Source: Alphaproteobacteria bacterium (GTDB lineage: Bacteria; Pseudomonadota; Alphaproteobacteria; UBA2966). Taken from it: 64,000 bases of DNA. Of this stretch, positions 1 through 41,076 are shown piece after piece. Within the stretch, counting starts at the first letter, position 1. The number at the start of each line of letters is the position of its first letter. The stretch is taken from NCBI GenBank assembly GCA_030740435.1, contig JASLXG010000066.1, positions 24,603-88,602 of the forward strand, given 5' to 3'. The translations under genes and the position numbers were made by a program. The notes under the pieces are model-generated. The model was not told where the DNA came from, searched no databases, and saw nothing but the letters and a program-made list of their open reading frames with translations.

Positions 1-230
1 TGCACAACGGCAACTTCTTCGAACTCAGCGAAGTGGTCGAGTTCTACAACGAAGGCGGTGACCAGAACGAGTTCTCGGCCAACAAGACCAAGTTGCTCAA
101 GCCCCTCAACCTCTCGGACGAGGAGCAGGAGGACCTGGTGGCCTTCCTGGATTCCCTGAGCGGCGACGAAATCAAGATCACGTCGCCCAAGCTGCCGCCC
201 TATGCGCCGCTGCCGGCGTCGACGAATTGA
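1..230 (+). CDS. di-haem cytochrome c peroxidase / MauG-family protein, C-terminal end (5' part outside window)
   Basis: Frame open from the window edge (codons from nt 3) reads HNGNFFELSEVVEFYNEGGDQN...LSDEEQEDLVAFLDSLSG. This is the conserved C-terminal block of bacterial CCP/MauG proteins. Stop TGA at 228-230. Confidence 0.7.
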   Translation, partial: HNGNFFELSEVVEFYNEGGDQNEFSANKTKLLKPLNLSDEEQEDLVAFLDSLSGDEIKITSPKLPPYAPLPASTN

Positions 231-244: not shown

Positions 245-835
245 ATGAAAATCGAAACGCAAACTGTGATTTCCGCCCACCAGGCCCACGACATGGTGGC
301 TTCTGGGGCGGTCCACGAAGGCCACGGCAAGTGCCTGATGAGCCGGCGCCAGTTCCTGCTGACCTCGGGTGCCACCAGCGTCGTGATGGTCAGTGCCGGT
401 CCCGGCCTGGCTGCCGCGCCGGCCGTGGTGTCGGGTTATAAGCGCCAGAAGATCGCCAAGCTGAGCCAGCTCAAGACCGACCAGCCGGTCGATTTCAAAT
501 ACCCTGACCAGGGAGCCTTCTCGGAATCGATGGTGGTCAAGTTGGGCACGGAAGCCGGCGGCGGCGTCGGTCCGGGCCGCGACGTGGTGGCCTTCAACTA
601 TGCCTGCACCCATCAGGGCGGGACTTTGAGCGGCACCTACAAGGGCGACACCAAGTCGCTGGGCGCCTGCCCGCTGCACCTTTCGACCTATGACCTGACG
701 CGCCACGGCATTTTGATCTCGGGCCAGGCCTACCAGAGCCTGCCCCAGGTGCTGCTGGAGTTGAAGGGCGACGATGTTTTTGCCGTGGGCGTCTTCGGGC
801 TGATCTTCGGCCGCTACGACAATCTGTTGGGTTAG
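245..835 (+). CDS. TAT-exported Rieske [2Fe-2S] small subunit, arsenite-oxidase/iodate-reductase (AioB/IdrB)-like
   Basis: Twin-arginine signal (MSRRQFLLTSGATSVV...AAAPA). Rieske boxes C-T-H (nt 605-613) and C-P-L-H 18 residues later. Sits directly upstream of the AioA-like large subunit, as in aioBA. Start ATG 245 (GGGGA 7 nt upstream) preferred; ATG 338 is an alternative. Confidence 0.8.
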   Translation: MKIETQTVISAHQAHDMVASGAVHEGHGKCLMSRRQFLLTSGATSVVMVSAGPGLAAAPAVVSGYKRQKIAKLSQLKTDQPVDFKYPDQGAFSESMVVKLGTEAGGGVGPGRDVVAFNYACTHQGGTLSGTYKGDTKSLGACPLHLSTYDLTRHGILISGQAYQSLPQVLLELKGDDVFAVGVFGLIFGRYDNLLG

Positions 836-848
836 GGAGCCAGGAACG

Positions 849-3521
849 ATGACAACACCCTATTACATTCCGGAAACCAACGTTCCGCTGCCGCCCAAGG
901 ACGCGGACGTCATCACCACCGCCTGCGACTACTGCATCGTGGCCTGCGGCTTCAAGGTCTACCGCTGGCCGGTGGCCGGCAACAACAAGGGTGGCCCCAA
1001 GGCCGGCCAGAACGCTTTCGGCGTCGACTTCCCGGTCTCCGCGCTGGGCGAGTGGGTGGCTCCCAACCAGCACAACATCGTGCTGCACAAGAACCAGCCC
1101 CACCACATCGTGATCATCCCCGACAAGGCCACCAAGCACGTCAACACGGATGGTGATTCGAGCCTGCGTGGCGGCTGCATCGCGCAAAAGGTCTACAATC
1201 CCCAGACGCCGACGCGCGACCGTCTGAAATCACCCTTTATGCGCATCTACGGCATCTTGCAGCCGGTGACCTGGGATTTCGCCCTCGACGTGGCGGCCGA
1301 GGTGGGGCGCCATGTCATCGCCAAGCACGGCGACAACGCCTATGGCGTCAAGACGTATTCCTACCAGTACATCGAGAACACCTACGCCATCACCAAGTTC
1401 GCGCTCCGCCACATCCGCACGGCCAACTTCACCTTCCATGATACGCCCTCGGACGTGTCGTCGACACCGGGCTTTCGCGACGCCGGCTTCGACAACTTCG
1501 GGCCGGCCTACGAAGACTGGATGAACGCCGAAACATTGTTCATGTGCGGCACCGATCCCTACGAGACCAAGACCATCCTCTTCACCCAGTGGATCATGAA
1601 GGGCATCCAGAACGGTCAGAAGGCCATCTTCATGCTGCCCCGCCGCACCGCCGGCGTTGCCTATGGCGAGAAGAACGGCGGCCTCTGGCTCGACGTAACC
1701 CCGGGCACCGACCTCCTGGTCATCAACGCCATCGCCCGCACCATCGTCGAGAACGGCTGGGAGGATTCGGAGTGGATCAAGAAGTGGGTCAACAACAAAT
1801 GGGAATCCTCCTCGGGCTTCGGCCAGGGCACGCGCAACACGCCCTGGCAGTGGCGCACCACCTGGGGCAAGTTCCAGACCAAGGGTTTCGCCGACTGGAA
1901 GAAGTGGCTCTTGAGCCGCGATGAGTTCAAGGTCGAAAACGCTTCCGCCGTCTCGGGCGTCGCCGCCAAGAAGATCCTGACCGCCGCCGAGTGGCTGGCC
2001 AAGCCCAAGAACGGCAAGCGGCCCAAGTCCTCGATCATGATCGAGAAGGGCCTTTACTGGTCCAACAACACCGGCAGCACCGAGGCCATCTCGGCGCTCG
2101 GCATTATCGTCGGGGCCGGCGGCCGGCCGGGCCAGGTCATCGGCCGGGCCGGCGGCCATCAGCGTGGCGGCCAGCGTGGCGGCAAATATCCGCGCAACAA
2201 GTCGCCCATGAAGGTGCCGGGCCGGCGCCGTCGGGCCCTGGATACCGATACCTGGACCATGGCCGGCCATACACACATGGCCCACGTCATCGGCACCACC
2301 TGGATCCAGTCCATGTGCGGCTCGCAGCAACTGGCCAAGCGCTTCCACGAACTGACGCTGGCCAACCCGCATCAGGTGCGTTCCTACGACAAGAGGGACA
2401 TCATCGAGAGTCTCAAGAAACGGGCCGATTCGGGCGGCATGGTGGTGATCAACCAGGAAATCTATCTGGTCGATCCCATCGGCAACCGTTATGCCGACAT
2501 CATCTTCCCGGCCGCCACCTGGGGCGAGGACAACTTCATGCGGGCCAACGGCGAACGCCGGCTCAGGCTCTACCAGAAGTTCTACGACGCCCCCGGCGAG
2601 GCCAAACCCGACTGGTGGATCATCGCCAACCTGGCCAAGCGCATGGGCTACGACGGCTTCGATTGGAAGAACTCCAACGACGTCGCCGAAGAGGCCTCGC
2701 GCTTCTCTCGCGGCAGCCGCAAGGACTTTCACATGGTCAAGGTGGCAGCCAAGCGCGAGGGCAAGACGCTGCACCGGAAGATGGCCGAATTCGGCACCAA
2801 CGGCATCCAGGGCCCGGTGTTCATGAACGACGACGGCTCGCTGATGGGCTGGAAGCGCTTGCATGACACCACCGCCAAACTGCCCGGTACGGGTCCGGCC
2901 GGGGCCAACGTCTTCAACAAGAAGTTGACCCACTTCAACAGCCAGACCGGCAAGTGCAACCTGCAGAAATCGCGCTGGTCGCTGTTTTCCGACTACTGGA
3001 ACTGGCTGAAGCCCAAGGGCGAGGAAATGTGGTGCACCTCGGGCCGCACCAACGAACGCTGGCAGTCGGGTTTCGACGACCGGCGCCGGCCCTACATCGT
3101 GCAGCGCTGGCCCGAGAACTATGTCGAGATGAGCCCCGAGGATGCCAAGGCCCGCGGCATCGAATCGGGAGATATGGTGATGGTCTACTCCGACCGGGTG
3201 CCCAGCCTGAAGGAAACCGTGCTCGGTGTCGAAGGCTCGGATTATTCCTTCGCCGGCCAGATGGCCAAGGGCAACGTCGAATTGACCCGGGCGGCGGTGA
3301 CCGGTGTGGCCATGGTGACGCGCCACATCAAGAAGGGCGTCCTCTATATGGACTTCCTGCACCCGGCCCAGCCGGCCAACGCGCTGGAGGGCCGCATCGT
3401 CGATTGGATCAGCGGCAATTATAATTACAAAATGGGCGTCGCCAAGGTGAAGAAGATCGGCGAATCCCCCTACAAGCGTTCCTTCCGCTCGATGTCGTTC
3501 GCGCCGCGCGATATCGTGTGA
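849..3521 (+). CDS. molybdopterin oxidoreductase large subunit, AioA/IdrA-like (3Fe-4S type); substrate unknown
   Basis: 890 aa. N-terminal C26-x2-C29-x3-C33 (TACDYCIVACGFKVYRWP) matches the 3Fe-4S arrangement of arsenite-oxidase-type subunits. Also GRAGGHQRGG block and an AioA-like C-terminal tail (...KKIGESPYKRSFRSMSF). No signal peptide of its own, consistent with hitch-hiking on the TAT Rieske partner. RBS GGGAG 835-839. Confidence 0.8.
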   Translation: MTTPYYIPETNVPLPPKDADVITTACDYCIVACGFKVYRWPVAGNNKGGPKAGQNAFGVDFPVSALGEWVAPNQHNIVLHKNQPHHIVIIPDKATKHVNTDGDSSLRGGCIAQKVYNPQTPTRDRLKSPFMRIYGILQPVTWDFALDVAAEVGRHVIAKHGDNAYGVKTYSYQYIENTYAITKFALRHIRTANFTFHDTPSDVSSTPGFRDAGFDNFGPAYEDWMNAETLFMCGTDPYETKTILFTQWIMKGIQNGQKAIFMLPRRTAGVAYGEKNGGLWLDVTPGTDLLVINAIARTIVENGWEDSEWIKKWVNNKWESSSGFGQGTRNTPWQWRTTWGKFQTKGFADWKKWLLSRDEFKVENASAVSGVAAKKILTAAEWLAKPKNGKRPKSSIMIEKGLYWSNNTGSTEAISALGIIVGAGGRPGQVIGRAGGHQRGGQRGGKYPRNKSPMKVPGRRRRALDTDTWTMAGHTHMAHVIGTTWIQSMCGSQQLAKRFHELTLANPHQVRSYDKRDIIESLKKRADSGGMVVINQEIYLVDPIGNRYADIIFPAATWGEDNFMRANGERRLRLYQKFYDAPGEAKPDWWIIANLAKRMGYDGFDWKNSNDVAEEASRFSRGSRKDFHMVKVAAKREGKTLHRKMAEFGTNGIQGPVFMNDDGSLMGWKRLHDTTAKLPGTGPAGANVFNKKLTHFNSQTGKCNLQKSRWSLFSDYWNWLKPKGEEMWCTSGRTNERWQSGFDDRRRPYIVQRWPENYVEMSPEDAKARGIESGDMVMVYSDRVPSLKETVLGVEGSDYSFAGQMAKGNVELTRAAVTGVAMVTRHIKKGVLYMDFLHPAQPANALEGRIVDWISGNYNYKMGVAKVKKIGESPYKRSFRSMSFAPRDIV

Positions 3522-3607: not shown

Positions 3608-5803
3608 GTGATGAACCAGCATGACCCGCTTGCGCTCCAGCACAATGGAACGGCTGACGTCGTGGCCCTGAAGGCCAACGTCGTGGCCGCCCTGGCCGGC
3701 CTCCTGGGCCAAGGACCCGACGTGGTGCGCTGCGCCGCCGCCCGGGCCCTGGGGGTAATGGGATCCGAGGCTGCCGTCGAGCCACTGGTGGCGGCCTTGC
3801 TGGACGAGGACGAGGACGTGCGCACGGACGCCGCCGGGGCGCTGGCCCGTCTCGGCGCTGCGGCGGCCGACAAGCAGCTTCTGGAAAATTTGCTCGGCGA
3901 TCCCTGCGCCGACGTCAAGGCGGCCGCCATCCGGGCCCTGGCGGGCTCAAGGAATTCCGACGTCGTGCCTTGGCTGCGCCGCCTGGCGGCTGGCCGTGAC
4001 GAGGAGATCGCCTGGGACGAAGAGGCCTTTTTCGACCAGGACTGGGACGATTGGGTGGACTTGCAGGTGGCCGCCATCGAGGCCCTGGCCGAAATGGGCG
4101 GCACCGAGGCGGTGCCCGATATCGTCGCCGCCCTCGATGACGAATACGCCCAGGACATCACCGAGACCGCCTTCAAGGCCCTGGCGCGCCTGGGCGACGA
4201 GGGACTGACTGCGCTCTCGATCTATGCCGAGGGCGGCGACCAGCGCCTGCGCCGGCGCGCCGCGGCGGTCATGGCTACGGCCGGCGGCGAGGTGGCCGAG
4301 GCGGCGGTGGAGCGCGCGCTCGGCGATCCCGAGCCGGCCGTGCGCCTGGCCGTGGCCGAGGTGCTGGCCGCCAAGGCGGCCGCCGATCCCCGGCTCGAGG
4401 CTTTGCTCGGCGATGCCGATCCCGGGCTGCGCGCCATCGCGGCCGTGCGCTGGGGGGAGCACCACCCGGCCGGCCTGAGGCCGCTTTTCGAGGACCGCTC
4501 GGCCGCCGTGCGAACGGCTGCTTTCGCCGCCCTGGCGGCAGCCCCGGCCACTCCCGACGACGAAGGCCTGGCAGATCTCTTGCACCGTAACTTGGCGGCG
4601 ACGCCGGACCAGGTGCCGGCGGCCGCGGCCCAGGCCCTGGCGGCGCACTTCGGACAGGCGGCGCTCGATGACTTGGCGGCGCTGCTGGCGGACCGGTCCC
4701 GTGGACCGGAAGTGCGGCTGGGCGCGTTGCGTGGCCTTGGCCGTCTGGGCCTGGCGGCGGTGCCCGCGCTGAGCGGGCAATTGGCCGATGACGAACGCCA
4801 GATCCGCCTCGAAGCCATGACGGCGCTGGCCGGCGTCGCCAAGGCCGAGAGCTGGCCCAACGCCGCCGGCGAGAGCCTGCTGGCGGCCTTGCGCGGCGAG
4901 ATGGTGGCTGAGCCCGAGCCGGAACCAGAGGCCGAACCCGAGCCGGAACCAGAGCCCGAGCCCGAGCCCGACGAATCAGCCTTCCCGGAATCGACGCTGG
5001 CGGCCATCCTGGGCCCCGAATCGCCGCTGCTGGAAGCCCATGGCGAGGTCCGCGGTGGTGCCGAACTGGGTCCCGATGATTTGGAATTCCTCGGCTTGGC
5101 CCGCGAGGCCCGGCAGGCCGGCGGCAAGAAGCGGGTGCCGCTGGTGCCCGATGTGGCGACCCACCAGGACGTGCCGCGCTTTGCCGCCAACCTGCTCGGC
5201 GATATCGCCCGTGACGAAGTGGCGTTGGCGCTGACGCAAGCTCTGCCGGCCGCCGACCGCGAGTTGCGCATCGAGGCGGCGCGATCGTTGGGCCGCATCG
5301 GTGAGGTGCTGGGCGAGCTGCCCGAGGGGGCATTCGAGGCCCTGGCGGCGCTCAGCCAGGATCGTGAGCGCGATCTCAAGCTGGCCGCCGTGCGCAGCCT
5401 GGGCCTGGCTCCGCTGGCGCTGGCTGAGCCCTTGCTGCGGGCCGGACTCGAGGACGAGGACGGTTTCGTGCGCCGCGAGGCGGTCTCCGCCCTGGCCCGG
5501 CTGGGCCCCGTCGACGGTGCCGTCGACGCCCTTTTGCACGACAACGAGCCCGGCGTGCGCCTGGCCGTGGCGGAGGCGCTTTGCGCCTCGGGCCGCGAGG
5601 ACGCCCTGGCCCTGCTGATGGATTTCGCCTTTGCCTTCGGCGGCGCCCAGCGCCGCGAGGCCGGGCGGCTGCTGCGCCGCCTCGACGCCCCGGCCGCCAA
5701 TGCCCGGCTGTTGCAGGTGCTCGAAGACGAAAGCCGCGAGCCGGTCTGGCAGGTGGCCATCGAGATGCTGGAGGAAATCAATGCTTCCGTGGCGGGTGGA
5801 TAG
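3608..5803 (+). CDS. HEAT-repeat (PBS-lyase HEAT-like) protein, cytoplasmic
   Basis: 731 aa with many repeats of the pattern D(x)xVRxxAAxALGxxG...AvpxLxxxLxD. No signal peptide. GTG 3608 / ATG 3611 start. Confidence 0.75.
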   Translation: MMNQHDPLALQHNGTADVVALKANVVAALAGLLGQGPDVVRCAAARALGVMGSEAAVEPLVAALLDEDEDVRTDAAGALARLGAAAADKQLLENLLGDPCADVKAAAIRALAGSRNSDVVPWLRRLAAGRDEEIAWDEEAFFDQDWDDWVDLQVAAIEALAEMGGTEAVPDIVAALDDEYAQDITETAFKALARLGDEGLTALSIYAEGGDQRLRRRAAAVMATAGGEVAEAAVERALGDPEPAVRLAVAEVLAAKAAADPRLEALLGDADPGLRAIAAVRWGEHHPAGLRPLFEDRSAAVRTAAFAALAAAPATPDDEGLADLLHRNLAATPDQVPAAAAQALAAHFGQAALDDLAALLADRSRGPEVRLGALRGLGRLGLAAVPALSGQLADDERQIRLEAMTALAGVAKAESWPNAAGESLLAALRGEMVAEPEPEPEAEPEPEPEPEPEPDESAFPESTLAAILGPESPLLEAHGEVRGGAELGPDDLEFLGLAREARQAGGKKRVPLVPDVATHQDVPRFAANLLGDIARDEVALALTQALPAADRELRIEAARSLGRIGEVLGELPEGAFEALAALSQDRERDLKLAAVRSLGLAPLALAEPLLRAGLEDEDGFVRREAVSALARLGPVDGAVDALLHDNEPGVRLAVAEALCASGREDALALLMDFAFAFGGAQRREAGRLLRRLDAPAANARLLQVLEDESREPVWQVAIEMLEEINASVAGG
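4910..4972 (+). repeat. in-frame (Glu-Pro)n low-complexity tract inside the HEAT-repeat gene
   Basis: Encodes EPEPEPEAEPEPEPEPEPEPD. The 18-nt unit CCCGAGCCGGAACCAGAG occurs twice (4913-4930 and 4937-4954). Confidence 0.9.
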
Positions 5804-5835: not shown

Positions 5836-6618
5836 ATGACAATGAAAGCGCAGACGAAATTAGGCTCTTTGGCGATTGCCGTGGCGGTCGCGGTGGCCTT
5901 GGCGGCACCCGCCCAGGCGGCTAAGAAGTACAAGGAAATCGACGTCCAGAACGGCGCCACCATCAGCGGGCGTGTGAGCTTCGAAGGCGCGCTCCCGGCC
6001 GACGCGGTGGAGAAGATCCTGATCACCAAGGATCCCAAGATCTGCGGCGAGGGTGAACGCGAAGTGGTCTGGATCGACGTCAAGGACGGCGCGCTGCGCG
6101 GCAGCTTCGTCTTCATCAACAAAATAAAAGAGGGCAAGAAGTGGGGCGCCCCGACCGGCGGCAAGTACATCATCGACCAGAAGGGTTGCCGCTTCAATCC
6201 CTGGGCCCAGGTGGTGCAGCCCGGCCCCATCACCATCCGCCACTCGGACCCGGGGGCGCTGCATAACATCAACACGCGCGAGATCATCGGCGTGGGCAAG
6301 AAGAAGTCGGTCAAGCGCACCATGTTCAACTTCGGCCAGCCCGAGCCCGGCGATATCGAACAGGCGCTGAAGCCCAGGCGCTCAGCCTTCATCGGCATCA
6401 ACTGCGAGGCCCACAACTTCATGTTCGGCTACATGATGGCACCCAAACACCCCTATGCCGTGGTGGTCGCGGACGACGGCTCGTTCAGCCTTGGCGACGT
6501 GCCGCCAGGCAAGTATTCGGTGCGTGCCTGGCATCCCCGGCTCGGCCTCAAGAAGACCAAGATCACGGTGGCGGCCGGAGCCAAGGCGGAAGCCAATTTC
6601 GCTTTCAAGGCCAAGTAG
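5836..6618 (+). CDS. periplasmic cupredoxin-like protein (putative type-1 Cu site) with carboxypeptidase-regulatory-like beta-sandwich ends
   Basis: Sec signal (AVAVALAAPAQA). C190-E-A-H193-N-F-M196 (nt 6403-6423) is an amicyanin-style C-x2-H-x2-M loop, with upstream His candidates at 6241-6243 and 6262-6264. The N-terminal GATISGRVSFEG and C-terminal DGSFSLGDVPPGKYSVRAW resemble CarboxypepD_reg strands. RBS GAGGAGAGG precedes ATG 5836. Confidence 0.55.
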   Translation: MTMKAQTKLGSLAIAVAVAVALAAPAQAAKKYKEIDVQNGATISGRVSFEGALPADAVEKILITKDPKICGEGEREVVWIDVKDGALRGSFVFINKIKEGKKWGAPTGGKYIIDQKGCRFNPWAQVVQPGPITIRHSDPGALHNINTREIIGVGKKKSVKRTMFNFGQPEPGDIEQALKPRRSAFIGINCEAHNFMFGYMMAPKHPYAVVVADDGSFSLGDVPPGKYSVRAWHPRLGLKKTKITVAAGAKAEANFAFKAK

Positions 6619-6649: not shown

Positions 6650-8764
6650 GTGACGAAGGCGGGGCAGGGGCGAAGCAGGCAGGCGCTGCTGGCGCTGGCG
6701 GCGCTGACCCTGGCCGTTCTGGCTGCCTCGCCGGCCTGGGCCCTGGAGGCCAACGAATACCGCCAGGTCCTGGGCCTCGATTCGCGCAAAGTCGTTTGGT
6801 TCCTGGCCCAGATGCACCTTTTCTTCGGCGCCTTCGTGCTCGGCGTGCCGCTGTTCGCCGTGATCATCGAAATCGTCGGCTGGAAGAACGGCGACGAACG
6901 CTTCGACAAGCTGGCCTACGAATTCACCAGCCTGCTCAGCGTCGCCTATGCCACCACGGCGGCACTCGGCGGCATGCTGGCCTTCGCGCTGTTTACGCTT
7001 TACCCGACCTTCATGGGCTTCATGGCCGGAGCCTTCAAGGACGTCTTTTTCGTCTACGCCATCCTGTTTTTTGCCGAGACCTTCTGCCTCTATCTCTACT
7101 ACTACGGCTGGAAGGCGATGCAGGGGCGGGAGCCTTTCGGAAAAACCCTGCAACTGCTCTTCAAGACGGCCGGCGTGGTCATCGCAGGCCTTGGCCTGCT
7201 TTTCCTGTTCGGTCTTATCGGACCCGAGATGCGGGGCGATACCCGGGCCTTCATGGCGCTCTTGTACGTGCTGCCGCTGGGGGCCGGGATATATCTGCTG
7301 AAAGACGGCAAGTCGGGCCACATCCTGATCGGCATCCTGCTCAACCTGGCCGGCACCGGCATCATGCAGGCGGCCAACTCGATGGCCGGCTTCATGATGA
7401 GCCCGGCCGGCGTCAGCGAGGCCGGCGAGATCATCGGCAGCACCTGGCAGGTCTTCGAGAACGTGCTGGCCACGCCGGTGGCTATCCACCGCATGCTGGG
7501 CAATCTCGCCTTCGGCGGCCTGGTGGCGGGATCGTATGCCGCCGTCAAGTTCATCGGCGCCAAAACGGCCGAGGAAAAGGCGCACTACGACTGGATGGGC
7601 TACATCGCCAATTTCGTCGCCATCGCCGCCCTGATCCCGCTGCCCTTCGCCGGCTACTACCTGGGCCGCGAGGTCTATTCGACCTCGGCCGTCATGGGCA
7701 ACAACATGATGGGCGGCGATTTCTCCTGGACCTTCATCATCCAGGCCGTGCTGGTGGGCTCGCTGTTCTTGATCTCGAACTATTACCTCTGGTCCGGCAT
7801 GACCCGCATCCCGGGGTCCGAGCGCTATTACAAGTTCATCAAGTTCATCCTCTTTGCCCTGATCGTCTCCTTCGCCATCTGGCTGACGCCGCACAACCTG
7901 CCGCTGACGGGCTCGGAGGTGGGCGATATGGGCGGCAGCCAATACCACCCGACGCTCAAGTTCCTGGGCCTGATGCCGGCCAAGAACGCGGTGGTCAACC
8001 TGATCATCATCTCGACCTTCGTCAGCTTTCTTTTGTATCGCCGCGGCAACAAGGCCGATGCCGTGTCGATCCGGGCCCAGGGGCGGACGCCGATGATCGT
8101 CATCGGCCTGGCCGGCGCGGCGGCGCTCTTGATCGTTGGCCAATTCGCCTGGTCGCTGATGACCATGAGCCCGGCCGAGCTCGACCTGCCGGCCGACACG
8201 GCGCAGTACTTCCGCACCGTCGGTTGGCTCTTGATCGGCGAATGCGCCATGGTGGTGGTGGCCGTCGGCCTGGCGCTCACGGACCGCGGCAAGTGGGCCC
8301 AGGCGCTCTATCTCGCCTACACCGTCTTCAGCGTCGTGCTGTTCCTCGGCGTCTACGGCTTCGTGGTCATGGAGAAGGCCTCGCCCTTCCTGCGCGACGT
8401 TGCCGTGGCCCAGTTCCTGCAGCTCATCAGTGCCCTCATTCTGGTCTCCGCCATCGACCTATTCCTGTTCAAGGGCGCTCAGGAGATCGGCCCCCTGCAG
8501 TGGGGCAAGATGACCAACCGCAGCCAGTACGCGCTGCTGGCGCTGACCTTCGTCATCACCATGAACATGGGCCTGATGGGCTTCATCCGCTCAGGTTTGC
8601 GCGGCGACTGGCACATCTTCGGGGTCATGCGCGACACCTCGGAATGGTCCTACACGCCGACCAACGCCACCATGACCGAGATGGTCAGCCTGGCCGTGCT
8701 GGTCTTCATGGTGGGCGTCGCCTTCATGTTCTGGCTGGGCAGCATCGCTGCCAAGAAGGACTAG
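6650..8764 (+). CDS. CydA-like (cytochrome bd subunit I-like) polytopic membrane protein, module 1; no cydB partner
   Basis: 704 aa from GTG 6650 (RBS GGAGAGGA 6640-6647), with about 16-18 hydrophobic segments. Blocks alignable to E. coli CydA: AQMHLFFGAFVLGVPLF (His19 region), AILFFAETFCLYLYYYGW (FLESTFVGLFFFGW region), AIHRMLGNLAFGG (His186 region). Confidence 0.65.
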   Translation: MTKAGQGRSRQALLALAALTLAVLAASPAWALEANEYRQVLGLDSRKVVWFLAQMHLFFGAFVLGVPLFAVIIEIVGWKNGDERFDKLAYEFTSLLSVAYATTAALGGMLAFALFTLYPTFMGFMAGAFKDVFFVYAILFFAETFCLYLYYYGWKAMQGREPFGKTLQLLFKTAGVVIAGLGLLFLFGLIGPEMRGDTRAFMALLYVLPLGAGIYLLKDGKSGHILIGILLNLAGTGIMQAANSMAGFMMSPAGVSEAGEIIGSTWQVFENVLATPVAIHRMLGNLAFGGLVAGSYAAVKFIGAKTAEEKAHYDWMGYIANFVAIAALIPLPFAGYYLGREVYSTSAVMGNNMMGGDFSWTFIIQAVLVGSLFLISNYYLWSGMTRIPGSERYYKFIKFILFALIVSFAIWLTPHNLPLTGSEVGDMGGSQYHPTLKFLGLMPAKNAVVNLIIISTFVSFLLYRRGNKADAVSIRAQGRTPMIVIGLAGAAALLIVGQFAWSLMTMSPAELDLPADTAQYFRTVGWLLIGECAMVVVAVGLALTDRGKWAQALYLAYTVFSVVLFLGVYGFVVMEKASPFLRDVAVAQFLQLISALILVSAIDLFLFKGAQEIGPLQWGKMTNRSQYALLALTFVITMNMGLMGFIRSGLRGDWHIFGVMRDTSEWSYTPTNATMTEMVSLAVLVFMVGVAFMFWLGSIAAKKD

Positions 8765-8768
8765 CCGC

Positions 8769-9746
8769 ATGACCGCCACCATGGCCAGGGTTGCGCTGTT
8801 CATGTTTCTGCTGCTGGGCCTTTTCCTGTGGGTCGGCAGCACCATCACGGCCATGACCGGCGGCGACAAGCGGCCCAAGGGCGGCGCCGTCGAGGTCAGC
8901 CCCGAGGGCGGCGAGGCCATCTTCTGGGGCAAGGGGCGCTGCTTCACCTGCCACAGCCTGGGCGGCCAAGGGAGCGCCGTGCGCTGCCCCAACCTGGGCC
9001 AATTCGGCGACAAGTTCGCGCTGCCCATCGGCGCCCGAGCGGCGGAGCGGGCCAAGGAACGCAGCGCCAAGACCGGCCAGACCTACACGACCACCGATTA
9101 CCTGGTGGAAAGCCTGGCCGAGCCTGGGGCCTACGTCGTCGAGGGCTACAAGAACGAGATGGCCATCGTCTACGCGCCGCCGATCTCGCTCAATCTTACC
9201 GAGATCAAGGCCGTGATCGCCTACTTGCAGAGCCAGGGCGGCGACGTCGACATGGAGGCGCTGAACAAGCCAAGCCCGATCAGCCAGAAGTTCTTCGCCC
9301 GCATCAATGCGGCCTCGGCCGCCGGTGGTGGCGATCCCGGTGCCGGCGAGGTGGTCTTCGAGGACAACTGCGCCGAATGCCATGACCTCGGTGGTGAAGA
9401 CGAGGAGCTGCCGGGTCCGGCGCTTTCGGGCGTCGGCAAGAAGGGCCTCAAGTTCCTGGCCGATGCCATCCTCAGGCCGGCCAAGGAGATCACCAAGGGT
9501 TTCGAGACGTATCAAGCGGTGATGAAGGACGGCCGCAAGCACGTTGGCCTGAAAAGCCGTGACGAGGGCGGCGAGGTCGACATCACCAAGGCCAACGGCG
9601 ACGTCGAGACGCTGGCCAAGGCCGAGATCAAGGAGCTCAAGGAAGACAAGGGCAAATCGATCATGCCCGAAGACCTGATCGAGGCCCTGACGGTCAAGGA
9701 CTATCAGGACGTCCTCTCGTTCCTGCTGTTGCAAAAGGGCGAGTAA
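8769..9746 (+). CDS. membrane-anchored di-haem cytochrome c, module 1
   Basis: N-terminal TM helix. CFTCH and CAECH motifs. The C-terminal half resembles the Planctomycete/Verrucomicrobia-type haem-binding domain (...SIMPEDLIEALTVKDYQDVLSFL). Confidence 0.8.
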   Translation: MTATMARVALFMFLLLGLFLWVGSTITAMTGGDKRPKGGAVEVSPEGGEAIFWGKGRCFTCHSLGGQGSAVRCPNLGQFGDKFALPIGARAAERAKERSAKTGQTYTTTDYLVESLAEPGAYVVEGYKNEMAIVYAPPISLNLTEIKAVIAYLQSQGGDVDMEALNKPSPISQKFFARINAASAAGGGDPGAGEVVFEDNCAECHDLGGEDEELPGPALSGVGKKGLKFLADAILRPAKEITKGFETYQAVMKDGRKHVGLKSRDEGGEVDITKANGDVETLAKAEIKELKEDKGKSIMPEDLIEALTVKDYQDVLSFLLLQKGE

Positions 9747-9752
9747 GGCACC

Positions 9753-10718
9753 ATGGCAAAGCTCAGAATCAGTCGCTTCTGGTGGGTCGTGATCACCATT
9801 GTGGCGGTCTATGCCTTCGTCAAATGGGGCATTCCGGCGCTCTCGCGGGAAATCACGGCGCTGCCCTTCCCGCTTTCGGTGCCGGGCACCTTGATGTTCA
9901 TCTACATCGTGCTGACGCTGGTGGCGCTGTTTCTCTTCATCACCTTTTCGGACGACTACCTGGAAGAATTCAGCCGCCCCATCAAGCGTCTGCTGCGCGG
10001 CGAATTCGGCGCCATCCCGCGCCTCGTGGTGCTGCTGGCGGTGCCGTTGATCGTCGGCTGGCAGGTTTACGACGTGACCGTGCCCAAGGTCGAGCTGCCC
10101 TCGACGCTGCGCATCCAGCACCCCTCGTCGAACTTCCCCAAGAAGTTCGAGAGCATGAACAATCCCTTCGCCAATCCCGATGAAGCCACGGTCGCGGCCT
10201 TCATCGAGCAGGCCAAGGACGAGGAGATCGAGTTCATCGCCCAAGTCCAGGGCGACATCGAGGCCTGGCGCGAAGAGATCGATCCAGACAACCCCTACGA
10301 TTTCATCCCCACCAAGCCCTGGCGTGCCTTTCTCGCCCAGCTCGAAGAGGGCGAGGTCGAGCCGGCCGTGGCCAAGGCGGCGCTGGTGGAGAAGAACCTC
10401 TTCGAGGGGCGCGCCCTATATGCCATGAACTGCCGGCCCTGCCACGGCGACAGCGTCGCCGGCGACGGCCCGCTGGCCGACGGCTTCAAGCTCAGGCCGA
10501 TCAACTTCACCGACAACGGCACCATCGAGACCATCGTCGAGGGCTACACCTTCTGGCGCGTGAGCAACGGCGGCCCCGGCCTGCCCACCGAGGCCACACC
10601 CTGGGATTCGGCCATGCCCGAGTGGAAGGTCAGCCTGACCGAGGCCGAGCGCTGGAAGATCATCCTGGCCGAATACGACCTGGCCCAGAAGACGCCGCGC
10701 ATCCCGGAGAGCCATTGA
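9753..10718 (+). CDS. 3-TM membrane-anchored mono-haem cytochrome c, module 1
   Basis: Three N-terminal hydrophobic helices. One CRPCH motif followed by FWRVSNGGPGLPTEATPWDSAMP. Its stop overlaps the next start (TGATG, 10716-10720). Confidence 0.8.
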   Translation: MAKLRISRFWWVVITIVAVYAFVKWGIPALSREITALPFPLSVPGTLMFIYIVLTLVALFLFITFSDDYLEEFSRPIKRLLRGEFGAIPRLVVLLAVPLIVGWQVYDVTVPKVELPSTLRIQHPSSNFPKKFESMNNPFANPDEATVAAFIEQAKDEEIEFIAQVQGDIEAWREEIDPDNPYDFIPTKPWRAFLAQLEEGEVEPAVAKAALVEKNLFEGRALYAMNCRPCHGDSVAGDGPLADGFKLRPINFTDNGTIETIVEGYTFWRVSNGGPGLPTEATPWDSAMPEWKVSLTEAERWKIILAEYDLAQKTPRIPESH

Positions 10719-12337
10719 TGGTTTCGCGCATCACCATGGCGCTGGGCTTGGGCCTTCTCGCTTTCGCGGTCTCGCCGGCCGAGGCCGCCGACGTCTCGCA
10801 GGATCCCCAGCCCGAGTTCACGGACGAGCTGCGGGCTGAAGGCCGGCAGATCTACTTCCAGCGCTGCAGCTTCTGCCACGGCCTGCTGGGCGACGGCGAG
10901 GGACCGGCGGCGCCCTTCATGGACCCCCGGCCGCGCGACTTCACGCTGGGCACCTTCAAGTTCCGCACCACCCAGTCGGGCGAGCTGCCGCAAGATTCAG
11001 ACATCTTCCGCACCGTCAGCCGCGGCCTCAGCGGCACCGCCATGCAGGCCTTCGACGACGAGCGCATCAAGAACGGCCTCAGCGAGCACCAGCGCTGGGC
11101 CGTGATCGCCTACATCCAGACCTTCGCCCAGGAGTTCGACGATGAGGAACTGGACCCGGTCAAGACCGGCAAGGTGGTGGCGCTGCCCAAGGACCGCCCG
11201 GCCTATGGCGCCGAAATCGTGGCCAAAGGCAAAGAAATCTTTCTCAAGGCCAAGTGCTGGGAATGCCACGGCAAGTCGGGCCGCGGCGACGGCCAAAAAT
11301 CCTTCGACCGCAAGGACGACTGGGGCTTTCCCATCCGCATCCGCAACGTCACCCATCCCTGGAAGATCAAGGCCGGCGACCGCGTCGAGGACATCTACAT
11401 GCGTTTCTCGACCGGCATCAGCGGCACGCCCATGCCGTCTTTCGTCAAGGCCCTGAGCGAGAGCGAACGCTGGCAGCTGGCCAACTTCATCAAGTCTTTG
11501 CAGATCCAGCGCACCAGCCACCAGGTGCTGAAGGCGCTGCGCCTGGAGGGCGAGCTGCCCGAGAGCCCGGATGATCCGCGCTGGAAGCAAGCCGAGCCCA
11601 TGGACGTGATTCTTACCGGGCAGGCCGTGGCGCCGCCGCGCTGGCAAAGCCCGTCGGTCGAGATGGTGACGCTGAGGGCCGTCTTCAATGACAACGAAAT
11701 CGCTTTCCGGCTGACTTGGGACGACCCCTTCAAGGACACCAAGCACGACGCCGGGCAGGAACTCGACGTCAAGGAGATCAGCGCCAGCGGCATCTACAGT
11801 TCATACGTCGACGTCAACGAGTTGGCGGTGCGCAAGCTGGAGACCTATCGCGACGCCGTGGCGCTGCAGTTTCCCGTGAAGCCCACCGAGGGCACCAGGC
11901 GGCCGCACTTCCTGCGCGGCTCGGCCTCGGATCCGGTGCATCTCTGGCTTTGGAAAGCCGATGAGGGCGCTGTCGAGGAAGCCGTCGGCCGGGGTTGGCG
12001 CCAAGGCCTGAGGCCGCAGCCCGAGGAGCAGCAGCAGGTCGCCGCCAAGGCCGCCTGGGACCAGGGGCGCTGGCAACTGGTGATGAAACGGCCCTTGCGC
12101 ACCGAGGACAAGAACGACGTCCAGTTCGAGGCCGGCCGCTTCATTCCGCTGTCGCTCAATGCCTGGGACGGCTCCAACGGCGAACACGGTTTGATCATGA
12201 GCCTCTCTAGTTGGTATTACGTCTTCCTCGAAGCGCCGACGCCGATCAGCGTTTACCTCTATACCATCCTGGCGATCTTGATCACGGGCGGTCTGGGTTT
12301 CTGGTTGATGAGAAAAGCTGAAGCGGAAGACGCCTAG
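10718..12337 (+). CDS. di-haem cytochrome c fused to EB_dh-like (ethylbenzene-dehydrogenase gamma/NxrC-like haem-b) domain with C-terminal TM anchor, module 1
   Basis: Signal peptide. CSFCH and CWECH in CcoP-like repeats (PRDFTLG, GTAMQAF / GTPMPSF). Then about 250 aa of beta-rich domain (VTLRAVFNDNEIAFRLTWDD...FIPLSLNAWDGSNGEHG). C-terminal helix VYLYTILAILITGGLGFWL. Confidence 0.65.
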   Translation: MVSRITMALGLGLLAFAVSPAEAADVSQDPQPEFTDELRAEGRQIYFQRCSFCHGLLGDGEGPAAPFMDPRPRDFTLGTFKFRTTQSGELPQDSDIFRTVSRGLSGTAMQAFDDERIKNGLSEHQRWAVIAYIQTFAQEFDDEELDPVKTGKVVALPKDRPAYGAEIVAKGKEIFLKAKCWECHGKSGRGDGQKSFDRKDDWGFPIRIRNVTHPWKIKAGDRVEDIYMRFSTGISGTPMPSFVKALSESERWQLANFIKSLQIQRTSHQVLKALRLEGELPESPDDPRWKQAEPMDVILTGQAVAPPRWQSPSVEMVTLRAVFNDNEIAFRLTWDDPFKDTKHDAGQELDVKEISASGIYSSYVDVNELAVRKLETYRDAVALQFPVKPTEGTRRPHFLRGSASDPVHLWLWKADEGAVEEAVGRGWRQGLRPQPEEQQQVAAKAAWDQGRWQLVMKRPLRTEDKNDVQFEAGRFIPLSLNAWDGSNGEHGLIMSLSSWYYVFLEAPTPISVYLYTILAILITGGLGFWLMRKAEAEDA

Positions 12338-12391: not shown

Positions 12392-13054
12392 ATGAGAATA
12401 ATTTTTGCCTCATCTTTGGCGCTGGCGCTGAGCCTGGCCGCAAGTGGTCCGGCCCGGGCTGATGCGGCGGCCGGCAAGGCCGCCTTCGCGGCCCAGAAAT
12501 GCGAGGGCTGCCATTACACCGAAGGGCCGGCCAGGGAGAAGTCGATCGACGATCAGTTGGCCAAGAAGGGGCCTGAGCTGTGGTACGCCGGTTCCAAGTT
12601 CCAGGCGCCCTGGCTCGAGGCCTGGCTGCAAAAACCCGATGCCATCCGGCCGCTGAAGTACAACACGCTCGAACAAGAGAACCCCGGCGACCATCCCAAG
12701 CTTTCGGGCGGCGATGCCAAGAACGTCGCCGCTTTCCTCATGAGCCTGACCTCGGACGCTGTCAAGGCGGGCAAGGTCAAGGCCAAGAGGAACGCCAAGG
12801 GGCGCCTGATTTTCTCCAAGAAAATGCCCTGTTCCGGTTGCCACTCCTCCATCGGCCGCAAGAAGAAAGTCGGCGGCGGGCGTTCCGGCCCGACCCTGGT
12901 CGGGGCCGGCCAGCGCCTCAACCCGGACTGGATCCTGGCCTATCTCAAGACGCCCGACGTCTTCAAGCCGATCAAGGCCATGCCCGTGTTCGCCGGTATC
13001 CTGGGCGACAAGGACATGCTCAACCTGGCCCGCCACGTGGCCAGCTTCAAGTAG
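12392..13054 (+). CDS. periplasmic di-haem cytochrome c
   Basis: Signal peptide (ALALSLAASGPARA). CEGCH and CSGCH motifs. RBS GGGAGAG. Confidence 0.8.
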   Translation: MRIIFASSLALALSLAASGPARADAAAGKAAFAAQKCEGCHYTEGPAREKSIDDQLAKKGPELWYAGSKFQAPWLEAWLQKPDAIRPLKYNTLEQENPGDHPKLSGGDAKNVAAFLMSLTSDAVKAGKVKAKRNAKGRLIFSKKMPCSGCHSSIGRKKKVGGGRSGPTLVGAGQRLNPDWILAYLKTPDVFKPIKAMPVFAGILGDKDMLNLARHVASFK

Positions 13055-13074
13055 CCCGGCGGGAGGATAGAACC

Positions 13075-13443
13075 ATGAAAAGATTGACCACCGCCGCTGC
13101 CTTCTGCACCCTGGCGTTTGCCCTGGCCGTTCCTTCGGCCCAGGCCGCCGATGCCAAGAAGGTCTACAACTTCTATTGCGCCCAGTGCCACGGCACCGCC
13201 GGCAAAGGCAAGGGACCCAACGTCACCAAGGACTTTCCCGTCAGCCCGCGCGACTTCACCAATGCCGCCGAGATGGACAAGCTCTCGGACGCCGACATGA
13301 AGAACGTGATTCTGGATGGCGGTCCGGCGGCCTCCAAGTCGCCCATGATGCCGCCCTGGTCCAAGACCCTGAAGGGCGACGAGGTTGACGCTCTGGTCGG
13401 CTACCTGCGCAAGTTCTGCGGCTGCAAGGGCAAGCAAGGCTAG
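13075..13443 (+). CDS. periplasmic mono-haem cytochrome c (class I)
   Basis: Signal peptide (FALAVPSAQA). CAQCH, with distal Met candidates in SPMMPPW. RBS GGGAGGA 13061-13067. Confidence 0.8.
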   Translation: MKRLTTAAAFCTLAFALAVPSAQAADAKKVYNFYCAQCHGTAGKGKGPNVTKDFPVSPRDFTNAAEMDKLSDADMKNVILDGGPAASKSPMMPPWSKTLKGDEVDALVGYLRKFCGCKGKQG

Positions 13444-14023: not shown

Positions 14024-15880
14024 GTGACGCACAGCAAGGTTTTGACCGCCTGGCGCCCCTGGGTGCTGGCGGCTCTGGTGGCGACGCTGTTGCTGGCCCT
14101 GGTGCCGCTGCTGGGCAGCGCCCTGGATATCGCGTCGCCGGCCCTGGCGGCCGAAGGCGAGGCGGCGGCGGCGGCAAGCGGCGAGCAGGCGGCGGCCCCG
14201 GCCGGCCCGACCATCGCGCCGCCCAAACTGAAGAGCACCGACTATCCGGTTGTGGCCGGCGTCAACGGACGCATCTTCGTCTGGCTGGCGGCGCAATTGC
14301 ACCTCTGGTTCGCGGCCTTCGTGCTGGCCGTGCCGATCTTCGTCTTCATCATCGAAGCCATCGGCATGTACAGCCGCGACCAACGCTACGACAACATGGC
14401 CTACGAGTTCATCAAGGTCAGCATCACCGCCTATTCCCTGACCGCCATCCTGGGTGGCCTGTTGGCCATCGGCCTGATCGTTTTCTACCCGCACCTCTTC
14501 CAGTACATGTCCGGCGTCTTCAAGGAATCGATGGTCTGGTATGCGGTGCTGTTCTTCGCCGAAAGCGCCTGCCTTTACATCTATTACTACGGCTGGCACT
14601 GGCTGCAGGGCGGCTTCCGCAAGTGGGTTCATCTGACGCTGGGGCTGGTGCTGAATGGCGTCGGCACGACGCTGATGTTCCTGGCCAACGCCTGGCTCAC
14701 CTTCCAGATGAGCCCGGCCGGCGTCGATGCCGCCGGCCTCTATTCCGGCGACGTCTGGGCCGCCATCCACAATCCCTTGTGGAACCCCATCAACCTGCAC
14801 CGCATGATCGCCAACGTCGCCTACGGCGGCTCGGTGGTCGGCGCCTATGCCGCCTTCCGGTTTCTCTCGTCGCGCACGGCCGAGCTCAGGGCGCATTACG
14901 ACTGGATGGGCTACACCGCCAACTTCATCGCCATCAGCGCGCTCTTGCCGCTGCCCTTCGCCGGCTACTACCTGACGGCCGAGATCTACGCCTACAGCCA
15001 GCAGATGGGCATCACCCTGATGGGCGGCGTCTTCGCCTGGCTCTTCATCATCCAGGCGGTGCTGATCGGCACGCTGTTCCTCTCGGCCAACTATTATCTC
15101 TGGTGCGGCATGGGGCGCAGCGACGGGGCGCCGCGTTACAACCCCTATATCAAGTACATAGCCTTCGGTCTGGTGGCCTCGTTCCTGGTCTGGTTCACGC
15201 CCCACACCCTGGTGCTGACGAACGAGGAACTGAAGGCTCTGGGCGGGCCCTACCACAAGTACCTGGGGCCGCTGGGCATCATGCCGGCCAAGAACACGGC
15301 CGTGAACTACATGATCATCCTGACGGCGCTGAGTTTCCTGATTTACCGCCGCGCCAACAAGATCCCGACGGTAAGCTGGGTCAAGATCGGCAATGCCGTG
15401 CAGGTGGCCATGTTCACGGCCGCCGTCGTCAACATCCTTATCCTGGGCGTCTACCACGGCTACTTCACCAACACCGTCTACAAGGTGGCGAGCTCGATCC
15501 CCCAGGTGTTGACGACGCTGGTGGTGATCTTCGTCAGTACGCTCATCGACGTCTTCATGTACCGCGGCGCCAAGGACGTGGCGCCGCTGCATTGGGGCCG
15601 ATTGCCCGAACGCGCCCAGTACGCGCTCTTCCTGCTGGCCGTCTCGTTCACCTGGCTGATGGGCCTGATGGGCTACATCCGCTCGGGCATCCGCCAGCAC
15701 TGGCACGTGGTCGGCATCTTCCGCGACAACTCGGCCGACGCCTTCACGCCGACCCTGGCGGGCGGTGCCAATATCGTCTCTGTGGGGGTCATCATCTTCC
15801 TGGTGATGGTCATCTTCGTCTTCTGGGTCAGCCAGATCAGCGGCCGCAAGACCGAAGTGGCCGGATACTGGAGGACCTAG
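14024..15880 (+). CDS. CydA-like (cytochrome bd subunit I-like) polytopic membrane protein, module 2; no cydB partner
   Basis: 618 aa, about 14 hydrophobic segments. AAQLHLWFAAFVLAVPIF, AVLFFAESACLYIYYYGW, NLHRMIANVAYGG and MGLMGYIRSGIRQHWH are all shared with the module-1 paralogue. GTG start with GGGGGA 14015-14020. Confidence 0.65.
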   Translation: MTHSKVLTAWRPWVLAALVATLLLALVPLLGSALDIASPALAAEGEAAAAASGEQAAAPAGPTIAPPKLKSTDYPVVAGVNGRIFVWLAAQLHLWFAAFVLAVPIFVFIIEAIGMYSRDQRYDNMAYEFIKVSITAYSLTAILGGLLAIGLIVFYPHLFQYMSGVFKESMVWYAVLFFAESACLYIYYYGWHWLQGGFRKWVHLTLGLVLNGVGTTLMFLANAWLTFQMSPAGVDAAGLYSGDVWAAIHNPLWNPINLHRMIANVAYGGSVVGAYAAFRFLSSRTAELRAHYDWMGYTANFIAISALLPLPFAGYYLTAEIYAYSQQMGITLMGGVFAWLFIIQAVLIGTLFLSANYYLWCGMGRSDGAPRYNPYIKYIAFGLVASFLVWFTPHTLVLTNEELKALGGPYHKYLGPLGIMPAKNTAVNYMIILTALSFLIYRRANKIPTVSWVKIGNAVQVAMFTAAVVNILILGVYHGYFTNTVYKVASSIPQVLTTLVVIFVSTLIDVFMYRGAKDVAPLHWGRLPERAQYALFLLAVSFTWLMGLMGYIRSGIRQHWHVVGIFRDNSADAFTPTLAGGANIVSVGVIIFLVMVIFVFWVSQISGRKTEVAGYWRT

Positions 15881-15883
15881 GCG

Positions 15884-16702
15884 ATGATGAACTTCCTCAA
15901 GGTGGCCCTCTTCTCGCTGGTCGTCATCGGCTTTTTCGCGGGCTATTCCAACTGGGGCATCCCGCAGATCGAGCCGGCGGCGCCGCCGGTGGAAGAAGTG
16001 CTCGATCTGGGCGCCATGACCATGGACGACTTCATCGCGCTGGGCGGCAAGATCTACAACGGCAAGGGCACCTGCACGCTCTGCCACAATGCCGTCGGCG
16101 GCCGGGCGCCCATGCTCGATACCGCCGCCGGCCTGGTTGCCGAACGCCTCAAGGACGCCCGCTACAAGGGCGAGGCCAGCGACGCCGAGGGCTATCTGCT
16201 GGAATCGCTGGTCAATCCCTCGGCCTTCGTGGTGGCGGGCTTCGGCAAGAAGGGGACAGCCGATGCCGAAAGCCCGATGCCCGACGTCTCGGGCGGCTCG
16301 GTGGGCTTGAGCGAGGTCGAACTGGCGGCCGTGGTGGCCTTCCTGCAGGATCTCGGCGGCACCGATGTGACGGTGGAGATCCCCTCGGGCGCCCAGGCCT
16401 CCGACGAAAGCGGCGACGAGGAGGGCGAGCCCCGGGCGGCCTACGCCTCGATCGAGGAACTGATCGCCGAGCAGTCCTGCGGCGCCTGCCACAAGGTGGC
16501 CGGCGAGGAAGGCGACGTTGGTCCGGACCTCAACGGCATCGGCGCCAAGTACGATCGCGACTACCTGCGCCGTTCCATCCTCGATCCCAATGCCGACATC
16601 GGCCAGGGCTTCGAGGCCGACACCATGCCGGCGGAATACGGCACCACCCTCTATGCCCAGGAACTCGAAATGCTGATCGACTACCTGGCCAAACTGAAAT
16701 GA
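15884..16702 (+). CDS. membrane-anchored di-haem cytochrome c, module 2
   Basis: N-terminal TM helix. CTLCH and CGACH motifs. YLLESLVNPSAFVVAGF and DYLRRSILDPNADIGQGF blocks are paralogous to the 8769-9746 protein. Confidence 0.8.
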   Translation: MMNFLKVALFSLVVIGFFAGYSNWGIPQIEPAAPPVEEVLDLGAMTMDDFIALGGKIYNGKGTCTLCHNAVGGRAPMLDTAAGLVAERLKDARYKGEASDAEGYLLESLVNPSAFVVAGFGKKGTADAESPMPDVSGGSVGLSEVELAAVVAFLQDLGGTDVTVEIPSGAQASDESGDEEGEPRAAYASIEELIAEQSCGACHKVAGEEGDVGPDLNGIGAKYDRDYLRRSILDPNADIGQGFEADTMPAEYGTTLYAQELEMLIDYLAKLK

Positions 16703-16715
16703 GCAGGGGCGCGGC

Positions 16716-19260: not shown

Positions 19261-19270
19261 GAGAGTGTCC

Positions 19271-36705: not shown

Positions 36706-36714
36706 GATCCGCCC

Positions 36715-41042: not shown

Positions 41043-41076
41043 GGCCGTCATTTTCGTGGCGAATTCGGAGGTAACG

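Follow-up and report, generated by a model that had tools for sequence, protein, structure and literature searches.

The 64-kb window analyzed here, the whole stretch of 64,000 nucleotides taken from the alphaproteobacterial contig JASLXG010000066.1, carries near its start two adjoining genes, at 245–835 and 849–3521, that we identify as probable idrB and idrA. They would encode the two subunits, small and large respectively, of a dissimilatory-type iodate reductase of the periplasm, and the cluster reads idrP1-idrP2-idrB-idrA. We give this assignment, which was reached by comparison of sequences, a probability of about 0.87. On these grounds the enzyme is of an already known kind, the IdrAB of marine waters and oxygen-minimum zones (OMZs); it is not an arsenite oxidase, nor does it represent a new enzyme type. 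The genes of the cluster are as follows; positions marked L001 refer to the upstream part of the same contig.

L001 7114–8232, upstream of the window: idrP1, dihaem peroxidase, 372 residues (PF03150)
L001 8243–9382, spanning the window start: idrP2, dihaem peroxidase, 379 residues (PF03150)
1–230, plus strand: 3′ end of idrP2, the second of the tandem dihaem cytochrome c peroxidase (CCP_MauG) genes (PF03150)
245–835, plus strand: predicted idrB, Rieske [2Fe-2S] small subunit bearing a signal for twin-arginine translocation (Tat), 196 residues (TIGR02694, Pfam Rieske)
849–3521, plus strand: predicted idrA, catalytic 3Fe-4S/bis-molybdopterin subunit, 890 residues, 100.0 kDa (Pfam, motifs, tree)

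The upstream DNA was obtained from the window's own contig by exact-sequence look-up, window position 1 being position 9153 of locus L001; the contig is present in public marine metagenome assemblies and assemblies of metagenome-assembled genomes (MAGs). A preliminary description, written from the letters of the window, had taken the peroxidase neighbour as favouring Idr-type chemistry and had proposed to look upstream for a second peroxidase. Both points are borne out: two tandem CCP_MauG genes, the idrP1/idrP2 pair, lie directly before idrB, the two peroxidases are secreted as judged from their sequences, and the position of the large subunit in the tree agrees. Further upstream on L001 stand a HAMP histidine kinase and a sigma-54-dependent response regulator, and the layout on the contig is thus kinase, regulator, P1, P2, small subunit, large subunit. 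The top matches of the two regulators are AtoS and AtoC, and regulators of the atoS/atoC type also lie upstream of idr in Azoarcus sp. DN11 (PMC10149662). The preliminary description had further objected that the gene order is unlike that of idr; this objection falls, because “idrABP1P2” is a name and not a physical order. P1-P2-B-A is the physical order in Azonexus NCP973 and in all 73 loci that have sufficient upstream DNA among the best 80 of 559 relatives found in a genome-collection scan (all 80 with at least 76% identity), and it recurs in Moritella, Roseibium and Sedimenticola.

A sigma-54-type −24/−12 box, TGGTACGGTTTTTGC, is located 134 nucleotides upstream of idrP1 (L001 6966–6980, ~2.2 kb before window position 1). 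Such a box also precedes idrP1 in Azonexus (locus L088, 6042–6056) and in three other loci with a sigma-54 regulator, and a search of six further regulator-carrying loci with the same pattern gave none; as evidence that the cluster may be regulated in this way, the box is only supportive.

The profile scores place both proteins among the relatives of arsenite oxidase and at some distance from it. The small subunit matches TIGR02694 with 115.2 bits (cutoff 95.65) and the Pfam Rieske profile as well; the large subunit contains the Pfam domains Rieske_3, Molybdopterin and Molydop_binding and matches TIGR02693 with 400.9 bits, slightly over the cutoff of 359.05. The top solved structures are AioA of Pseudorhizobium banfieldiae NT-26 for the large subunit (270 bits, ~29% identity) and AioB of the same strain for the small subunit (103 bits). 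The modest TIGR02693 score, taken together with ~29% identity to the nearest structure, indicates a relative of Aio and not a typical AioA.

The cofactor motifs are those that the preliminary description had read. IdrB carries the twin-arginine motif SRRQFLL, although its match to the Pfam TAT_signal profile is weak (17.1 bits, under the 22.7-bit cutoff), and its Rieske boxes, CTHQGG and CPLHLS, are arranged with the spacing C-x-H-x18-C-x2-H and lack the disulfide cysteines, whereas the Rieske protein of the cytochrome bc1 complex in the same window (36715–37266, minus strand) retains them (CTHLGC...CPCHGS). IdrA has the AioA-type cluster motif C26-x2-C29-x3-C33, followed by 70 residues up to S104, as well as the block R433-A-G-G-H437-Q (R-x-GGHQ), and its N-terminus contains neither a signal peptide nor a hydrophobic segment. 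The motifs reported for IdrA and IdrB of Azoarcus sp. DN11, i.e. CX2CX3CX70S, CXHX18CX2H and a Tat signal on IdrB (PMC10149662), are all found in the window proteins. The missing Rieske disulfide has no discriminating value: it is lacking in 82 of 84 Idr loci and in NT-26 AioB alike. Many of these 84 loci are closely related, so the counts made over them, here and below, do not represent independent events. At the level of the whole protein, IdrB is 56% identical to Azonexus IdrB and 42% identical to NT-26 AioB.

For the phylogeny of the large subunit, we aligned the window protein with 14 relatives (Alpha-, Gamma- and Zetaproteobacteria), Azonexus IdrA, a partial homologue from Thiothrix, seven intermediates, NT-26 AioA, four AioA-like sequences and outgroups; the tree was computed by neighbour-joining from Kimura distances over 792 columns with 300 bootstraps. 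The window protein belongs to a marine clade with a bootstrap of 100%; the marine clade and Azonexus/Thiothrix are sisters (93%); and the canonical AioA sequences group on their own, likewise with 100%, to the exclusion of the window protein. Robust placement inside IdrA, which according to the preliminary description would make the enzyme a known iodate reductase, is therefore what the tree gives, and the opposite outcome, a position among canonical AioA with the arsenite-binding residues conserved, is contradicted by the tree and by the residues themselves (4 of 8 kept, see below).

Identities point in the same direction. The window IdrA is 78% identical to that of Ruegeria halocynthiae, 76% to that of Labrenzia/Roseibium alba, 71% to that of Thiomargarita and 69% to that of Moritella viscosa, and identities within the marine clade range from 66 to 87%. 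Reyes-Umana et al. (PMC8692401, Table S3) name Ruegeria, Labrenzia alba, Moritella viscosa and Thiomargarita among the species that carry idrABP1P2, and Thalassovita (Litorimicrobium) taeanensis, named in the text of the same study, is also a member of the marine clade. Among the best 80 of the 559 relatives, the nearest come from MAGs assigned to Rhodospirillaceae and Sneathiellales, recovered from OMZs and from Saanich Inlet. When sequences are clustered at 50% identity, the window IdrA has one close representative (67%), followed by sequences at 36–43% and then by AioA-like sequences at 30–33%. The members of the marine/OMZ clade share with the window the gene cluster, the pocket residues and the HEAT-repeat neighbour described below; nothing substantive sets the window apart from them, since its tandem pair of bd-like/cytochrome c modules and its two-component regulators are features that some members have and others lack.

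The link to a validated system is made through Azonexus hydrophilus NCP973, whose idr cluster we found on a plasmid (tblastn against plasmids). Five dissimilatory iodate reducers have been isolated, this strain among them, and it raises expression of idrABP1P2 when it reduces iodate (PMC13455634); according to the literature, isolated iodate respirers with IdrABP1P2 also include Pseudomonas sp. SCT, Denitromonas iodatirespirans IR-12 and Azoarcus sp. DN11. Azonexus has the kinase, sigma-54 regulator, P1, P2, small subunit and large subunit in the same order as the window; the proteins are reciprocal best matches (IdrA 48–49%, IdrB 56%, P1 48%, P2 56%), with identical lengths for P1 and for P2; and the two IdrAB types share the same cofactor motifs, have a Tat signal on IdrB only and form sister clades. 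The clusters differ downstream: Azonexus and Thiothrix have a small cytochrome c gene and moaA there, without the HEAT-repeat gene and the bd-like modules of the window.

Published experiments on members of the marine group support the functional assignment. Kine et al. reported that three aerobic marine Alphaproteobacteria with idr convert iodate to iodide under oxygen limitation, that idr is induced by 0.1 μM iodate, and that IdrA (99.4 kDa) is the main protein of the activity-stained band (PMC11445184). Li et al. found idrABP1P2 in 41 OMZ MAGs, 44% of them Alphaproteobacteria, in a clade apart from the isolates, and clusters from two OMZ MAGs, one of them alphaproteobacterial, made Escherichia coli reduce iodate (PMC13455634). 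Given these two studies and that of Reyes-Umana et al. (PMC8692401), the advice of the preliminary description to treat the substrate as open was over-cautious.

From the family and from the gene content, a mechanism can be proposed for the window enzyme. The folded IdrAB complex would be exported through the Tat system. Electrons from the quinol pool would reach periplasmic c-type cytochromes via the bc1 complex (34.7–37.3 kb) and/or the neighbouring cytochrome modules, and would then pass from the Rieske center to the 3Fe-4S cluster and on to molybdenum, opposite to the direction in arsenite oxidase. At the molybdenum, IO3− would be reduced to hypoiodous acid (HIO) and finally to iodide. The dihaem peroxidases IdrP1 and IdrP2 would clear H2O2 or other oxidants, as in published models (PMC8692401), and the histidine kinase and sigma-54 regulator encoded upstream probably drive transcription.

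The substrate pocket also separates the window enzyme from AioA. Engrola et al. described eight second-sphere residues in NT-26 AioA, four of them pivotal (His199, Glu207, Arg447 and His451) and two at the entrance of the funnel (Asp169 and Glu453) (PMC10448176). The counterparts in the window IdrA are the following.

Asp169 in NT-26, S171 in the window: changed
His199 in NT-26, H197 in the window: kept
Arg201 in NT-26, T199 in the window: changed
Glu207 in NT-26, S205 in the window: changed
Lys413 in NT-26, K400 in the window: kept
Arg447 in NT-26, R433 in the window: kept
His451 in NT-26, H437 in the window: kept
Glu453 in NT-26, R439 in the window: changed

The mapping of residues is sound, since in our translation of NT-26 AioA each of the nine published residues falls at its number; a fragment search of the PDB returned no match for the R419/H423 numbering, and the mapping rests on the NT-26 numbering. 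Four of the eight residues are thus kept in the window, whereas five of five AioA-clade sequences keep all eight. The pattern of the window is common to 14 of 15 marine-clade sequences aligned, the sequence from a Mariprofundaceae member differing solely at Arg201 (Asn); in Azonexus IdrA the same eight positions read S, H, K, D, K, R, H and C. For the four substrate residues that the preliminary description had proposed to check in the numbering of Alcaligenes faecalis, the counterparts of His195 and, presumably, of Arg419 and His423 are kept and that of Glu203 is S205. Ala203 of NT-26, which is equivalent to the molybdenum ligand of other family members and aligns with the cysteine of a formate dehydrogenase, is Ser201 in the window; Sedimenticola has Ala at this position and a sequence from Mariprofundaceae has Gly, and we read nothing into a site that varies in this way. 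Compared with AioA, His, Lys, Arg and His are retained in the pocket and three acidic residues are lost, one of which is replaced by arginine; as read from the alignment, this loss would fit an anionic substrate, IO3−, instead of neutral As(OH)3. The residue map could steer mutagenesis on how an Aio scaffold comes to reduce an anion.

The preliminary description had also noted that a Gly-rich loop carrying the catalytic His195 appears to be absent from the window protein. The loop is indeed missing: the insertion DHGGxGGG of AioA corresponds to a 4-residue gap in the window IdrA (YSY----QYIENTY). The histidine, however, does not lie in it. In A. faecalis AioA (1G8K), F173 begins the FENTW motif, and His195, Ala199 and Glu203 are located 22 residues downstream in IHNRPAYNSE; His195 corresponds to window H197 and is conserved. 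What the loop does hold is the funnel residue Asp169 of NT-26, Ser171 in the window. Among the sequences aligned, the insertion is present in AioA only and is missing in all those of the Idr clade, the intermediates and the outgroups, so its absence is ancestral or clade-wide and no peculiarity of the window gene. The earlier notion of a divergent pocket therefore stands insofar as the pocket differs from that of AioA; the argument made for it leaned on a misplaced His195, and the differences are common to the marine Idr clade. Two of the intermediates (P0128 and P0134, 36–38% identical to the window protein) lack the Gly-rich loop yet have the AioA-type Arg201, Glu207 and Glu453. PMC8692401 mentions an “unknown clade” that has arsenite oxidizers, and these two may represent it.

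Several points weigh against the assignment as an iodate reductase. The function of the window IdrA is assigned by sequence comparison, and the tree is a neighbour-joining and not a maximum-likelihood tree. The link to IdrA of Pseudomonas sp. SCT, Denitromonas IR-12, Azoarcus DN11 and Roseovarius azorensis is made through published species lists. Azonexus IdrA, the sole isolate IdrA compared, is only 48–49% identical, and its pocket differs from the marine one at three positions (K instead of T199, D instead of S205 and C instead of R439). The marine aerobes of PMC11445184 showed no anaerobic growth with iodate, so that the enzyme may serve either respiration or as an electron sink. Finally, the product chemistry of Idr is disputed in the literature, being either HIO alone or HIO plus H2O2.

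Some of these points would suit an Idr-like enzyme with another substrate or direction, i.e. one that reduces a different oxyanion (bromate, chlorate or selenate) or that works oxidatively and feeds the bd-like oxidases via cytochromes c. The three differences between the marine and the Azonexus pocket and the lack of growth by iodate respiration in marine aerobes are compatible with such an enzyme, and the bd-like/cytochrome c modules, found no farther than 10 kb from idr in 36 of 84 loci, would be in keeping with a chain coupled to an oxidase. We nevertheless regard this possibility as unlikely: in the three marine Alphaproteobacteria idr responds to iodate, iodate is turned into iodide and IdrA is in the stained band (PMC11445184); E. 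coli gains iodate reduction from an alphaproteobacterial OMZ cluster (PMC13455634); a conserved pair of peroxidases is in line with the reduction of an oxyanion; and the bd-like modules are not near idr in Ruegeria and Roseibium, and hence are not obligatory.

That the genes encode a genuine arsenite (or antimonite) oxidase AioAB, passing electrons from As(III) through molybdenum, the 3Fe-4S cluster and the Rieske center to cytochrome c, is very unlikely, for although both TIGR scores exceed their curated cutoffs, the named database relatives among the matches listed are all labelled “arsenate reductase (azurin)” or “arsenite oxidase”, the residues corresponding to His199, Lys413, Arg447 and His451 are conserved and a kinase and sigma-54 regulator stand upstream as for aioSR, the protein is only 29% identical to AioA and outside its fully supported clade, four of eight second-sphere residues including the pivotal Glu207 are changed and the AioA-specific loop is missing, two peroxidase genes are present, unlike in aio clusters (PMC8692401), and no aioX-like gene adjoins the regulators, in contrast to NT-26. 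More specifically, no AioX-like phosphonate-type binding protein was found next to the upstream regulators, and a scan of 40-odd open reading frames of the window turned up neither cld nor any arsenic-related gene.

The iodate reductase of the window and the AioAB enzymes of NT-26 and A. faecalis thus have in common a Rieske small subunit with a Tat signal, a large subunit with a 3Fe-4S cluster and a molybdenum bis-molybdopterin guanine dinucleotide cofactor, the four conserved residues named above and regulation of the sigma-54 type. They differ in overall sequence, in the Gly-rich insertion, in the substitutions D169S, R201T, E207S, E453R and Ala203 to Ser, in the peroxidase pair, in aioX and, presumably, in the direction of electron flow, which would be reversed in the window enzyme.

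The database labels do not bear on this choice. Azonexus NCP973 IdrA (L088 8983–11661) is itself annotated “arsenate reductase (azurin) large subunit”; a label that NCBI also gives to the enzyme of a validated iodate respirer carries no weight. TIGR02693 passes proteins of the Idr clade narrowly, and Azonexus IdrA bears the same product name, so that scores above the cutoffs of TIGR02693 and TIGR02694 do not separate Aio from Idr. Because the clade is systematically mislabelled, annotations of marine and OMZ metagenomes overstate arsenic cycling and understate iodine cycling, and the value of the idrBA genes of the window lies more in annotation and ecology than in discovery.

The accessory genes near idrA, namely the HEAT-repeat gene and the bd-like/cytochrome c modules, are the only points of the locus that are possibly new. 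They are listed here with other downstream genes.

3608–5803, plus strand: HEAT-repeat protein, 731 residues, cytoplasmic (Pfam HEAT_2, 182 bits)
5839–6618, plus strand: CarboxypepD_reg-like beta-sandwich protein, secreted, 259 residues (weak Pfam matches, C-terminal part)
6650–12337, plus strand: module 1, four genes (Pfam Cyt_bd_oxida_I, Cytochrom_C, EB_dh)
6650–8764, plus strand: module 1, bd-like (putatively OR-N-type) membrane protein
8769–9746, plus strand: module 1, dihaem cytochrome c
9753–10718, plus strand: module 1, monohaem cytochrome c with three transmembrane segments
10718–12337, plus strand: module 1, dihaem cytochrome c fused to an EB_dh haem-b domain
12392–13054, plus strand: soluble dihaem cytochrome c, 220 residues (Pfam, signal peptide, CxxCH)
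13075–13443, plus strand: soluble monohaem cytochrome c, 122 residues (Pfam, signal peptide, CxxCH)
14024–19024, plus strand: module 2, paralogous copy of module 1 (Pfam)
14024–15880, plus strand: module 2, bd-like membrane protein
15884–16702, plus strand: module 2, dihaem cytochrome c
16716–17483, plus strand: module 2, monohaem cytochrome c with three transmembrane segments
17480–19024, plus strand: module 2, dihaem cytochrome c with EB_dh domain
34682–37266, minus strand: complete cytochrome bc1 operon (Rieske protein, cytochrome b, cytochrome c1)

In 81 of the 84 loci, idrA is directly followed by an orthologue of the HEAT-repeat gene, which is outside the published idrABP1P2 definition; in Moritella the gene is upstream and divergent, and it is missing from the idr clusters of Azonexus, Thiothrix and Sedimenticola. 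The protein has no signal peptide and contains a conserved tryptophan patch, W-x9-WD-x-W (W135 and W145-D-x-W148). It diverges faster than IdrA (28–52% vs. 76–86% identity), and we infer a putative role in maturation or assembly.

The gene of the secreted 259-residue protein is found in 41 of the 84 idr loci, and its link to idr is positional only. A paralogue is encoded upstream of the window (L001 2513–3250, minus strand), and no relative was found in the PDB. We do not claim a type-1 copper site for this protein on the basis of its H...C-x2-H-x2-M pattern: it has no PDB relative, and a single-sequence AlphaFold model has a pLDDT (predicted local distance difference test score) of 37.5.

The membrane proteins of the two modules resemble cytochrome bd oxidases in part. 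They match Pfam Cyt_bd_oxida_I over the first helices only (profile positions 3–117 and 3–231), keep residues aligned to the active-site His and the proton-channel Glu of cytochrome bd, and are 41–46% identical to each other; copy 1 has ~15 hydrophobic segments, and the transmembrane count for copy 2 is crude. The OR-N1 and OR-N2 subfamilies of the cytochrome bd superfamily, described by Murali et al. (bioRxiv 10.1101/2021.01.16.426971), resemble the window modules in that their homology to CydA is confined to the first helices with the oxygen-reduction site, in having ~14 or more transmembrane segments, in having adjoining paralogues that are ~40% identical, and in being accompanied by redox partners and not by cydB. 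By these features the bd-like proteins are putatively of the OR-N type. The soluble cytochromes c at 12392–13443 are candidate electron carriers. Where a bd-like module lies within 10 kb of idr, it is in some loci downstream and in others directly upstream of idrP1; in the gammaproteobacterium Sedimenticola, the module adjoins a SCO1/SenC gene.

It is possible, though we hold it only tentatively, that the working unit of marine Idr is larger than idrABP1P2 and includes the HEAT-repeat protein as a maturation or assembly factor and, in many members, the OR-N-type bd-like/multi-cytochrome c/EB_dh modules and the secreted beta-sandwich protein as a private branch of electron transfer or of oxygen or oxidant handling coupled to iodate reduction. 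If this were true, the additional proteins would supply electrons independently of bc1 or would consume O2, H2O2 or HIO formed. Reyes-Umana et al. found conservation around idrABP1P2 to be poor (PMC8692401), and we found no publication that connects idr with HEAT-repeat or bd-like genes, including those of the OR-N type. Should the accessory genes be functional partners, the four-gene iodate reduction island would need to be extended for the marine clade; and should the bd-like modules be among them, OR-N oxidases would gain a testable physiological context.

Base composition changes along the window: the G+C content is 0.61–0.67 over the first 20 kb, which comprise the idr and cytochrome region, and 0.67–0.74 in the remainder. 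The low G+C of the idr region is a weak hint that it may have been acquired horizontally; no tRNA genes were found in the 64-kb window. Directly after module 2, a gene at 19187–20944 (plus strand) encodes a 585-residue protein with two universal-stress-protein domains and two short PCP_red domains (protochlorophyllide reductase subunit B). Farther downstream, at 41041–45796 (plus strand), genes for a MoxR-type AAA ATPase, a DUF58 protein and a BatA/DUF4159 protein stand in tandem and resemble the Bacteroides aerotolerance operon.

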